From Escherichia phage teqdroes: a stretch of 64,000 nucleotides of DNA. The first letter of the stretch is position 1; every line of letters starts with the position of its first letter. Below, piece by piece: positions 47,946 to 49,542 of this stretch. Both the position numbers and the translations under genes were made by a program. A model generated the notes under the pieces. It was not told the DNA's origin and ran no database searches. It saw only the letters and a list, made by a program, of their open reading frames with translations. The stretch lies in the sequence record NC_054932.1. One strand, written 5' to 3'.

Positions 47946-48018
47946 TGGGAATTAGCCAAGTTGGTAAGGCACTGGATTTTGATTCCAGGATGCAAAGGTT
48001 CGAGTCCTTTATTCCCAG
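47946..48018 (+). tRNA. tRNA-Gln: tRNA-Gln (anticodon UUG)
   Basis: Cloverleaf folded by hand; acceptor TGGGAAT/ATTCCCA; CCA not encoded. Confidence 0.75.
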
Positions 48019-48019
48019 C

Positions 48020-48106
48020 GCGAGAATGGTCAAATTGGTAAAGGCACAGCACTTAAAATGCTGCGGAATGATTTCCTTGTGGGTTCGAGTCCCACTTCTC
48101 GCACCA
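48020..48106 (+). tRNA. tRNA-Leu: tRNA-Leu (anticodon UAA), long variable arm, CCA encoded
   Basis: Cloverleaf folded by hand; acceptor GCGAGAA/TTCTCGC. Confidence 0.75.
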
Positions 48107-48111
48107 AATTT

Positions 48112-48185
48112 GCGGATATCGTATAATGGTATTACCTCAGACTTCCAATCTGATGATGTGAGTTCGATTCTCATTATCCGCTCCA
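48112..48185 (+). tRNA. tRNA-Gly: tRNA-Gly (anticodon UCC), CCA encoded
   Basis: Cloverleaf folded by hand; acceptor GCGGATA/TATCCGC. Confidence 0.75.
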
Positions 48186-48231
48186 ATTTATGACTCGTCG
48201 TGAGACGCTCAGTTCTTTATTAGGGACTGAT

Positions 48232-48840
48232 ATGCATTTTTATCTTTATAAAATAACAAATAAAATTAATAATAAAATTTATATTGGTGTGCATTCTACC
48301 GAAAATTTAGATGATGGATATATGGGTTCTGGTAAATTATTAAAAAGAGCCCAAGACAAGTATGGTATAGAAAATTTCTCTAAAGAAATATTAGAGTATT
48401 TTGATGATAAAGAATCTATGCTTGAAGCCGAGAAAAATATTGTCACAGAAGAGTTTTTAAATAGACCAGATGTGTATAATTTAAAACTTGGCGGAGAAGG
48501 TGGATGGGACCATATAAATAATTATCCTATGACAGATCAGCAACGCGAATTAATTTCATTGGGTGTTAAAAAGGCACATTCTAACGGAAAATTAAAAGGA
48601 TGGTCTTCAAATGGATTAATGAAGAATGGCTTTGCTGGTAAAAATCATTCTCAAGAAGCTAAACGTAAAATAGCAAAAGCAAACGAAGCAAAAGTTTCTG
48701 CGGATGAAAGAAAAAGAAGAATAGAAATTTCTAAATTATATGATTTTTCTAAGCGTGGTGAATTATCTAAATATGCTAAGCATATTGGCGTAAGTCATAC
48801 TCAAGCAAAAAGAATTCTAAATCAAATTAACAATATATAA
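48232..48840 (+). mobile_element. segB: GIY-YIG homing endonuclease (SegB-like) inside the tRNA cluster
   Basis: FYLYKITNKINNKIYIGVH...YMGSG GIY-YIG motif; track ORF opens at 48190 but ATG 48232 has an AGGGA ribosome-binding site. Confidence 0.75.
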
Positions 48841-48846
48841 ATATTT

Positions 48847-48936
48847 GGAGGCGTGGCAGAGTGGTTTAATGCACCGGTCTTGAAAACCGGCAGTCGCTCC
48901 GGCGACTCATAGGTTCAAATCCTATCGCCTCCGCCA
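48847..48936 (+). tRNA. tRNA-Ser: tRNA-Ser (anticodon UGA), long variable arm, CCA encoded
   Basis: Cloverleaf folded by hand. Confidence 0.75.
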
Positions 48937-48942
48937 GTTTTT

Positions 48943-49018
48943 GCTGATTTAGCTCAGTAGGTAGAGCACCTCACTTGTAATGAGGACGTCGGCGGTTCGA
49001 TTCCGTCAATCAGCACCA
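48943..49018 (+). tRNA. tRNA-Thr: tRNA-Thr (anticodon UGU), CCA encoded
   Basis: Cloverleaf folded by hand. Confidence 0.75.
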
Positions 49019-49019
49019 A

Positions 49020-49094
49020 GGCCCTGTAGCTGGAAGGTTCAAGCAAGCGACTCATAATCGCCAGATGGTGGTTCAATTCCACCCAGGGCCACCA
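49020..49094 (+). tRNA. tRNA with CAU anticodon (Ile2/lysidine-type or Met)
   Basis: Cloverleaf folded by hand; identity between Ile(CAU) and Met cannot be decided from sequence alone. Confidence 0.6.
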
Positions 49095-49106
49095 AATTAT
49101 GAATTA

Positions 49107-49193
49107 GGGGAGTTATCCCGTAGAGGTAGCGGTGTGGACTGTAAATTCATTGTCATTGCGACTCGGGTGGTTCGACTCCACCACTCCCCACCA
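49107..49193 (+). tRNA. tRNA-Tyr: tRNA-Tyr (anticodon GUA), type II long variable arm
   Basis: 87 nt with CCA; anticodon loop CTGTAAA; T-arm GGTGG-TTCGACT-CCACC; acceptor GGGGAGT/ACTCCCC. Confidence 0.55.
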
Positions 49194-49197
49194 ATTT

Positions 49198-49272
49198 GGA
49201 TGTGTAGCTCAATGGTAGAGCGATCGCCTGTTAAGCGATTGGTTATAGGTTCGAATCCTATCACGTCCGCCA
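49198..49272 (+). tRNA. tRNA-Asn: tRNA-Asn (anticodon GUU)
   Basis: Cloverleaf folded by hand; anticodon loop CTGTTAA. Confidence 0.6.
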
Positions 49273-49386
49273 AATTTGTGACAACTGTCACATTAATATC
49301 TACTTGACGCGATTATAGGGGTTGAACTGATCACTCTTCTCTTAATTTCGTGTGAAGACATCTTGATTGTTGGAGTAGGTATTAAT

Positions 49387-49462
49387 GTGGCCGTAGTTCA
49401 GTTGGTAGAACTCGAGATTGTGATTCTCGTAGTCATGGGTTCGACTCCCATCGGTCACCCCA
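49387..49462 (+). tRNA. tRNA-His: tRNA-His (anticodon GUG)
   Basis: Cloverleaf folded by hand; anticodon loop TTGTGAT. Confidence 0.6.
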
Positions 49463-49466
49463 ATTA

Positions 49467-49542
49467 CGGGGCATAGCTCAGAAGGAAGAGCAAGGACCTT
49501 CTAAGTCCTAGGTCGTAGGTTCGATCCCTACTGCCTCGACCA
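49467..49542 (+). tRNA. tRNA-Arg: tRNA-Arg (anticodon UCU)
   Basis: Cloverleaf folded by hand; anticodon loop CTTCTAA. Confidence 0.7.

Follow-up and report, generated by a model that had tools for sequence, protein, structure and literature searches.

The tRNA cluster of Escherichia phage teqdroes: a modular arrangement shared with AR1-type phages

A 64,000-nucleotide stretch of the genome of Escherichia phage teqdroes (NC_054932.1), here called the window, carries between positions 47,946 and 49,542 ten transfer RNA (tRNA) genes whose identities differ from those of phage T4. The question raised by this locus is whether the phage has a tRNA repertoire of its own, remodelled by recent exchange as a preliminary description of the sequence proposed, or a form of the cluster that is found elsewhere. 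The proposal stands in so far as the difference from T4 is modular. It does not stand as a peculiarity of this phage, since the arrangement is a widespread and annotated allele. The cluster is very probably an AR1/wV7-type allele of the Tequatrovirus tRNA cluster, which is modular and has been shaped by endonuclease-driven gene conversion. With more than 50 near-identical annotated genomes, it is a known allele, and its ten-tRNA arrangement is already annotated. As first stated, the finding amounts to routine annotation of modest practical value. Two features alone may be new, namely a candidate structured RNA in the spacer and the neighbouring tRNA-His, which is encoded without a G at position -1 (G-1).

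The cluster compared with T4 and its relatives

ARAGORN calls ten tRNA genes and none further in the whole 64-kb window, all on the + strand. Their coordinates and anticodons are the same as those obtained earlier from folds made by hand. Nine of the ten score 59-77 bits with the Rfam tRNA model (RF00005; gathering score 29). The tRNA-Tyr gene is the sole one under this threshold, and its top match is the tRNA-Sec model at 30.9 bits. The Tyr, Asn, and His tRNA genes are all called, and no tRNA-Pro is among the ten. The T4 set had been described as eight tRNAs that include Pro and lack Tyr, Asn, and His. The T4 record and ARAGORN agree with this, giving Gln, Leu, Gly, Pro, Ser, Thr, Ile(CAU), and Arg.

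Likeness to T4 (NC_000866) was assessed over the tRNA cluster and its flanks. The locus and flanks are common to both phages. As in other Tequatrovirus genomes, the cluster lies 3' of the trna.2-trna.4 open reading frames (ORFs) and 5' of rnaD, rnaC, and e.8, and the neighbours in AR1 are alike. The flanks are 97-98% identical to T4. In alignment, the leader with the Gln-Leu-Gly block is 97% identical, Ser-Thr 96%, and rnaD with rnaC and the terminator 98%. Taken together, flanks and shared tRNAs fall at 96-100%, and Leu, Gly, Ser, Thr, rnaD, and rnaC at 97-100%. The replaced segments show 37-55%, which is unaligned noise. T4 has Pro and other alleles of Ile(CAU) and Arg, with segB between the latter two and rnaD and rnaC after them, whereas Tyr, Asn, His, the spacer, and an ORF of 116 amino acids (aa) are absent from it. 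The window endonuclease has the catalytic half of T4 SegB in common. As judged from these alignments, the difference from T4 is one of module replacement, not of gradual divergence.

The same allele is found in many other phages. The 1.9-kb cluster region matches 964 phage records. In 52 of them, a single match spans 80% or more of the query, with identities of 95-99%. CrRp10, AV122, AR1, KIT03, RB18, RB51, and RB68 are among the 52, and the tRNA-annotated ones list the same tRNAs. AR1 (AP011113), KIT03, RB18, and Citrobacter phage CrRp10 are 97-99% identical to the window over 1.9 kb, with scattered point differences only. They share its ten tRNAs, their order, the endonuclease ORF, the spacer, and the 116-aa ORF. 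The AR1 record, whose ten tRNAs agree with these in identity and order, annotates the endonuclease as 'segD' and the CAU-anticodon tRNA as 'Met'. The order Ser-Thr-CAU-Tyr-Asn-spacer-His-Arg is 98-100% identical to slur04, wV7, and AR1. The Tyr-Asn-spacer-His block occurs in 185 records (at least 80% coverage) and the T4 Ile-segB-Arg module in 126 of the same collection, which argues that the T4 set is not the majority form. The Tyr and Asn genes of T2L were published in 2008 (PMC2330249).

At least five arrangements are found among near-identical phages, as seen from a six-phage alignment and annotated records. T4 reads Gln, Leu, Gly, Pro, Ser, Thr, Ile, segB, Arg. T2 reads Gln, Leu, Gly, Pro, Ser, trna.1, CAU, Tyr, Asn, Arg, 116-aa ORF. 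The T2/T2L region (LC348380; AJ880101; PMC2330249) has Gln-Leu-Gly in common with the window, and its CAU, Tyr, Asn, and Arg alleles and 116-aa ORF are 97-100% identical to those found there. The window has neither Pro nor the 133-aa ORF trna.1, which in T2 is located between Ser and CAU; T2 for its part is without Thr, His, and the spacer. PhiZZ30 is like the window but has no spacer, no His, and no 116-aa ORF. Pro apart, the 11 tRNAs of wV7 (HM997020) are in an order identical to that of the window. The wV7 series runs Gln, Leu, Gly, Pro, Ser, Thr, CAU, Tyr, Asn, spacer, His, Arg, with the 116-aa ORF at the end. T6 (AP018814; PMC13096335) reads Gln, Leu, Gly, a Pro/Thr fusion, CAU, Tyr, segB, Arg. 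Its tRNA-Tyr is identical to that of the window, and it lacks Ser, Asn, and His. The annotated tRNA-Thr of T6 (AP018814, positions 3143-3217 of the extracted locus) apparently consists of the 5' part of tRNA-Pro and the rest of tRNA-Thr, joined at a shared GTAGCTCAGT, and is not called by ARAGORN.

Three modules account for the window allele. The first is the endonuclease cassette, located where T4, T2, and wV7 have tRNA-Pro. The second is a T2-type segment with the CAU tRNA, Tyr, Asn, another Arg(UCU), and the 116-aa ORF in place of Ile-segB-Arg of T4. The third is the structured spacer and tRNA-His, inserted between Asn and Arg and common to T4-like phages of Klebsiella, Enterobacter, and Erwinia. 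Exchanges are expected here, since SegB-type endonucleases cut tRNA genes and drive gene conversion in co-infection. When T4 is crossed with T2L, a T2L segment is excluded in a SegB-driven manner. SegB homing replaces approximately 1250 bp of T2L, including the Met, Tyr, Asn, and Arg genes, with nearly 100% efficiency (PMC2330249). For the window allele, the direction of exchange would have to be read back from the sequences compared.

Several of the tRNAs differ from their T4 counterparts as alleles. The tRNA-Gln gene is 89% identical to the T4/T2/T6 allele, and every difference lies in the anticodon stem, where the changes are compensatory, or in the loop. Within this stretch (47970-47990), the anticodon loop is UUUUGAU here and CUUUGAC in T4, T2, and T6; we take UUUUGAU to be the loop of the host tRNA. 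Should a nuclease that attacks anticodon loops be directed at tRNA-Gln, this allele could be of consequence. The tRNA-Arg gene is 97% identical to that of T2 and only 66% to tRNA-Arg of T4/T6. The tRNA-Asn gene is 99% identical to that of T2, with the T arm identical in alignment. In T2L, this T-arm sequence is the preferred cleavage site of T4 SegB (PMC2330249).

The CAU-anticodon tRNA is 100% identical to that of T2 and 63% to tRNA-Ile of T4. ARAGORN labels it Met from the anticodon alone. Its full-length best match is annotated as tRNA-Ile in 5412 of 5426 complete E. coli genomes, at 76-82% identity to E. coli tRNA-Ile among the matches listed. The acceptor stem GGCCCUG/CAGGGCC gives C4-G69 and C5-G68, which we take to be determinants for the lysidine synthetase TilS. 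AUA codons are enriched 3.4x over E. coli in the ORFs of the window. The gene most likely encodes an AUA-reading tRNA-Ile2 of the lysidine type, not a tRNA-Met. By this assignment, it is the functional counterpart of T4 tRNA-Ile in the form of the T2 allele.

The tRNA-Tyr gene is 100% identical to that of T6 and 99% to that of T2. Its relatives are found in rV5-like phages (approximately 95% identity), Cronobacter phage CR3 (90%), and T5-like phages (approximately 84%). Its sequence suggests a single phage tRNA-Tyr lineage that spread over unrelated phage families. Capture of tRNA-Tyr from the host was considered and rejected on account of the near-identical copies in other phage families; the phage gene also looks unlike what we take to be the host tRNA-Tyr sequence. 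Recent host capture of the extra tRNAs in general was likewise rejected, as the CAU tRNA and tRNA-His are only approximately 80% identical to E. coli genes.

Table 1. Features of the tRNA cluster and its 3' flank in the window
Feature	Position	Strand	Basis
tRNA-Gln (UUG)	47946..48019	+	ARAGORN; Rfam 67.4 bits
tRNA-Leu (UAA)	48020..48106	+	ARAGORN; Rfam; 100% identity to T4, T2, T6
tRNA-Gly (UCC)	48112..48185	+	ARAGORN; Rfam; 100% identity to T4, T2, T6
Homing-endonuclease cassette, 656 bp	48191..48846	+	Junctions from window vs wV7
GIY-YIG homing endonuclease ORF, 202 aa	48232..48840	+	Pfam, PHROG, BLASTP
tRNA-Ser (UGA)	48847..48936	+	ARAGORN; Rfam; 97-100% identity to T4, according to where the 3' end is set
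tRNA-Thr (UGU)	48943..49018	+	ARAGORN; Rfam; 99% identity to T4
CAU-anticodon tRNA, T2 allele	49020..49094	+	ARAGORN; Rfam; allele comparison
tRNA-Tyr (GUA)	49107..49193	+	ARAGORN; below Rfam tRNA threshold
tRNA-Asn (GUU)	49198..49272	+	ARAGORN; Rfam 76.6 bits
114-nt 'spacer', core 49292-49386	49273..49386	+	Conservation, predicted fold
tRNA-His (GUG)	49387..49462	+	ARAGORN; Rfam 65.1 bits
tRNA-Arg (UCU), T2 allele	49467..49542	+	ARAGORN; Rfam; allele comparison
ORF, 116 aa, function unknown	49561..49911	+	PHROG 3355, E=6.7e-52
rnaD homologue (T4 species 2 stable RNA)	49908..50025	+	116/119 identical to T4 rnaD
rnaC homologue (T4 species 1 stable RNA)	50032..50170	+	137/139 identical to T4 rnaC
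Intrinsic-terminator-like hairpin and T run, cluster end	50221..50244	+	10-bp stem, 7 GC pairs, then TTTTT

The co-oriented array is probably transcribed as one unit. The leading Gln-Leu-Gly block is tightly packed, with gaps of 0 and 5 nt. T4-type early-promoter repeats are present 5' of the cluster at 46211-46276, 46578-46643, and 46878-46943, and the only strong terminator is the one after rnaC, which is conserved in T4, T2, and T6. Upstream early promoters and a lone strong terminator fit a single precursor, and the T4 tRNA cluster is known to be transcribed as such. From this we infer a precursor that would end at the terminator and would be processed by host RNases to the ten tRNAs, rnaD, and rnaC.

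Each of the three early-promoter cassettes (GTTTAC...GATACTAT), together with a ribosome-binding region, stands 5' of a small ORF. Two of these small ORFs seem to start with MKLENKMK because the promoter cassette and ribosome-binding region are repeated. The terminator hairpin (50218-50253) is duplicated 555 bp downstream (50773-50808) with 92% identity. The 116-aa ORF is found 3' of tRNA-Arg in T2, AR1, and wV7 and not in T4 or T6. It presumably corresponds to trna.2 of the T2L study (PMC2330249). It travels with the T2-type tRNA-Arg, which it parts from rnaD, and the first bases of the rnaD homologue overlap with the stop codon of the ORF. One study proposes that repeated promoter/terminator units of this kind are the means by which modules are shuffled in T4-like phages (PMC4122927).

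The endonuclease between tRNA-Gly and tRNA-Ser

The preliminary description placed segB between tRNA-Gly and tRNA-Ser. A GIY-YIG ORF is indeed present there, but it is not the orthologue of T4 segB, with which it has the catalytic half alone in common. The ORF lies in a 656-bp cassette that stands in for 84 bp of wV7 containing tRNA-Pro, with exact junctions that can be read directly. Apart from this replacement, the window cluster is that of wV7. Having kept tRNA-Pro and no endonuclease, wV7 represents the 'empty site' for the cassette.

The mechanical ORF list starts the frame at 48190. This start is probably spurious and 48232 the likely one, because T4 and T6 SegB begin at the MHFY/MFYY position. 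Residues 1-96 (48232-48519) form a SegB-type catalytic domain with one difference from T6 SegB. The catalytic KIYIGVH motif is kept, as are Tyr17 and Gly19 of the GIY-YIG domain, the catalytic residues defined for SegB (PMC13096335). The Pfam GIY-YIG model (PF01541) matches at 27 bits (cut-off 22.6), NUMOD3 and helix-turn-helix matches are weak, and the match to PHROG 314 (homing endonuclease) has E=2.8e-54.

Beyond residue 96-100 or so, after GGWDHIN, the remaining approximately 105 residues give no BLASTP alignment to T4 or T6 SegB. Residues 97-202 (48520-48840) constitute a different DNA-binding half with NUMOD3 and helix-turn-helix, which matches PHROG 16521. By BLASTP, this half shares 33% identity with the C-terminal part of T2 trna.1, and a shorter tblastn match to T2L trna.1 shows 41.5%. 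Closer to it, at 70-82% identity, are endonucleases from tRNA regions of phages of Klebsiella and Raoultella, and 54 records contain this half at at least 95% identity. Orthology over the full length fails at this C-terminal half, which is unrelated to that of T4/T6 SegB. The insertion site differs as well. The window ORF is located between Gly and Ser in the place of tRNA-Pro, not between the CAU tRNA or Tyr and Arg. In T6, unlike the window, the endonuclease comes after Tyr and its C-terminal half is of the T4 type. As far as its sequence can tell, the ORF is a SegB-type catalytic module combined with a different DNA-binding module at another site within the cluster. Cutting inside tRNA genes and homing during co-infection are known for T4 SegB (PMC2330249) and T6 SegB (PMC13096335). 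The window protein is most likely still a working homing endonuclease, and its target would lie in Gly-Pro-Ser clusters that lack the cassette. The wV7 and window clusters provide a clean pair of empty and occupied sites for an endonuclease with an exchanged DNA-binding half.

The cassette begins with a 41-nt leader that is one base apart, in alignment, from the leader 5' of T6 segB. The leader contains a hairpin (48209-48230) that lies directly against the start codon and may mask the ribosome-binding site of the endonuclease. Part of the leader (48194-48216) resembles the 5' part of tRNA-Pro (ACTC..CGTG..GCTCAGTT), and a tRNA-Pro remnant was considered. This unproven reading was dropped because the leader also precedes T6 segB after tRNA-Tyr and so moves with the cassette.

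The putative spacer RNA and tRNA-His

The 114-nt spacer 5' of tRNA-His occurs in 354 phage records that belong to Tequatrovirus, Karamvirus, and Jiaodavirus. It is beside tRNA-His in every case and is conserved as strongly as tRNA-His itself in the three genera. In Karamvirus, Jiaodavirus, and one Erwinia phage, the spacer and tRNA-His come after tRNA-Gln. The two are missing together from T2 and PhiZZ30 in alignment, and the module is present in COW86c and BovinicusUrsus.

The spacer core is predicted to fold into a three-way junction closed by a stem of 14 bp, and stops exactly at the 5' terminus of tRNA-His. The minimum free energy of the RNA is -32.7 kcal/mol (z = -4.4). In the consensus structure, 31/31 pairs are kept in all sequences, and 5 pairs are changed on both sides. 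When the partners were slid by 1-3 columns as controls, only 40-52% of cells pair. This covariation comes from about three independent lineages. No Rfam match to the spacer was found at E<=1. In the 40 records listed of the 354, no RNA gene is annotated at the spacer; the few labels belong to the neighbouring tRNA-Gln, and one is a hypothetical protein. Scans of IMG/VR (4 loci) and metagenomes (9 loci) returned sequence types known from these lineages and one probable chance match, and added no lineage. The spacer core is a candidate for an unannotated stable RNA, for which the evidence is suggestive rather than proven. If real, it may add a new member to stable RNAs such as rnaC and rnaD.

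Two other functions of the spacer were considered and rejected. A promoter is not supported, as its TTGACG is not conserved in the Klebsiella lineage and promoter-like sites are no commoner than in shuffled sequences. The core also resembles a hammerhead (CUGAUCA...GAAG), but the essential G of CUGAUGA is replaced, and no Rfam ribozyme matches at E<=1.

The adjoining tRNA-His gene has the GUG anticodon and C73 (49459) and has U at -1 (49386-49387 junction). T is found at -1 in the tRNA-His genes of the window and of the Erwinia and Klebsiella phages, whereas E. coli hisR has G-1 in the alignment. In bacteria, the identity of tRNA-His depends chiefly on G-1 and C73 (PMC9976931). The encoded G-1 that pairs with C73 in canonical bacterial tRNA-His is absent from the window gene. 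The spacer and tRNA-His might together constitute an undescribed functional unit, a suggestion that we put forward only tentatively. In such a unit, the spacer RNA could be a stable RNA or could steer an unusual 5' processing of tRNA-His, or the tRNA lacking G-1 could serve as a poorly charged decoy and not as a decoder. A decoy role, if this is what it has, would account for the retention of a His tRNA in a phage depleted of His codons.

Roles of the tRNAs and alternative explanations

Codon usage was determined in 65 long ORFs of the window and compared with an E. coli reference table. The codons AGA (5.6), AUA (3.4), ACA (3.1), GGA (2.8), UCA (2.8), UUA (2.4), and CAA (1.6) are enriched in the phage over E. 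coli by the factors given. Among the amino acids, only Lys is more enriched than Tyr (1.52x) and Asn (1.49x). Comparison of codon usage with the anticodons, which the preliminary description suggested for late genes, supports a supply role for nine tRNAs and does not support it for His. Codon supply thus fits 9/10 tRNAs. The tRNAs would reinforce the host pool at codons on which the AT-rich phage draws far more heavily than E. coli. As to their roles in vivo, we infer that the tRNAs mainly supplement decoding and that at least tRNA-Tyr has an anti-defence side.

The anti-defence side has been shown in T6. Its tRNA-Tyr is detected by Northern blot and is active, and when overexpressed or amplified, it counters Septu Ec-B88, a system that cleaves tRNA-Tyr. 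T6 becomes more sensitive to Septu when the tRNA region is deleted, and T4, which lacks tRNA-Tyr, cannot escape Septu (PMC13096335). Similarly, T5 tRNA-Tyr neutralises retron-Eco7 (PMC11555353), and phage tRNAs have been proposed to be nuclease-evading copies (PMC10264068). In the window, tRNA-Tyr at least would buffer against host defences that cleave tRNA-Tyr, as does the identical T6 gene.

Several observations weigh against a decoding role complemented by defence. His is the most depleted amino acid (0.64x versus E. coli), and tRNA-His is without the encoded G-1 on which the E. coli histidyl-tRNA synthetase relies (PMC9976931). The two together place the normal charging and supply role of tRNA-His in question. 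The GUN anticodons form Watson-Crick pairs with the depleted C-ending codons and read the enriched U-ending ones by wobble. All of these ratios depend on the E. coli table used. On the defence side, the phage tRNA-Tyr is itself cut by Septu, so that protection is by dosage and not by resistance (PMC13096335, 2026). In addition, the window endonuclease is not next to Tyr, unlike that of T6.

Pure codon compensation, in which each tRNA is kept solely for over-used codons, is doubtful as a complete account. It is consistent with the nine fitting tRNAs, with the 1.6-5.6x enrichment of the codons of seven of them, and with Tyr and Asn as the second and third most enriched amino acids. It leaves the position of His, the lowest of all, unexplained. 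The Pro codon CCA is enriched 2.0x, yet tRNA-Pro has been lost to the endonuclease, and ACU and UCU are enriched more than 3x, yet no phage tRNA here forms Watson-Crick pairs with them. Furthermore, the cluster is dispensable in T4 (PMC2330249).

A mainly anti-defence function is also unlikely to be the whole explanation. By this account Tyr, Asn, and His, which share G34, are spares or decoys for tRNAs destroyed by Septu, retrons, or anticodon nucleases. The actions of T6 tRNA-Tyr against Septu and of T5 tRNA-Tyr against retron-Eco7 speak for it, as do the model of nuclease-evading tRNAs and the recurrence of tRNA-Tyr at approximately 95% identity in unrelated rV5-like phages (PMC13096335, PMC11555353, PMC10264068). 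A possibly poorly chargeable tRNA-His also suits a decoy better than a decoding role. The experimental support is limited to Tyr among the three, however, and wild-type T6 with its single copy is still restricted by Septu. The three G34 tRNAs belong to the queuosine family, the presumed target of colicin E5-type anticodon nucleases. Moreover, the bigger arrays of related genera hold many tRNAs that are not of the G34 type.

Selfish hitch-hiking, in which the tRNA content reflects the last endonuclease-driven module with little selection on each tRNA, appears quite improbable as the main explanation. The near-100% efficiency with which SegB homing replaces approximately 1250 bp of T2L argues for it. 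So do the removal of tRNA-Pro by the cassette, the apparent T6 Pro/Thr fusion that ARAGORN does not call, and the coexistence of at least five arrangements among near-identical phages. On the other hand, the tRNA sequences are intact and nearly invariant over hundreds of genomes, and compensatory changes keep the stems, as in Gln and Ser.

That some calls are false positives or pseudogenes, so that the true repertoire is below ten, is very improbable: tRNA-Tyr misses the Rfam threshold and tRNA-His lacks G-1, but ARAGORN calls all ten, tRNA-Tyr has the same sequence as the expressed and active T6 tRNA, and tRNA-His reaches 65 bits and is a conserved gene in three genera.

The AR1/wV7-type allele, with tRNAs that would mainly supplement decoding, changes how the T4 cluster is to be seen. 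The tRNA set of T4 is one of several alleles at a locus kept reshuffled by homing endonucleases, and the allele in the window is among the commonest. As its tRNA-Tyr is identical to that of T6, phages that carry this allele may act like T6 and not like T4 where the host has a system that cleaves tRNA-Tyr.

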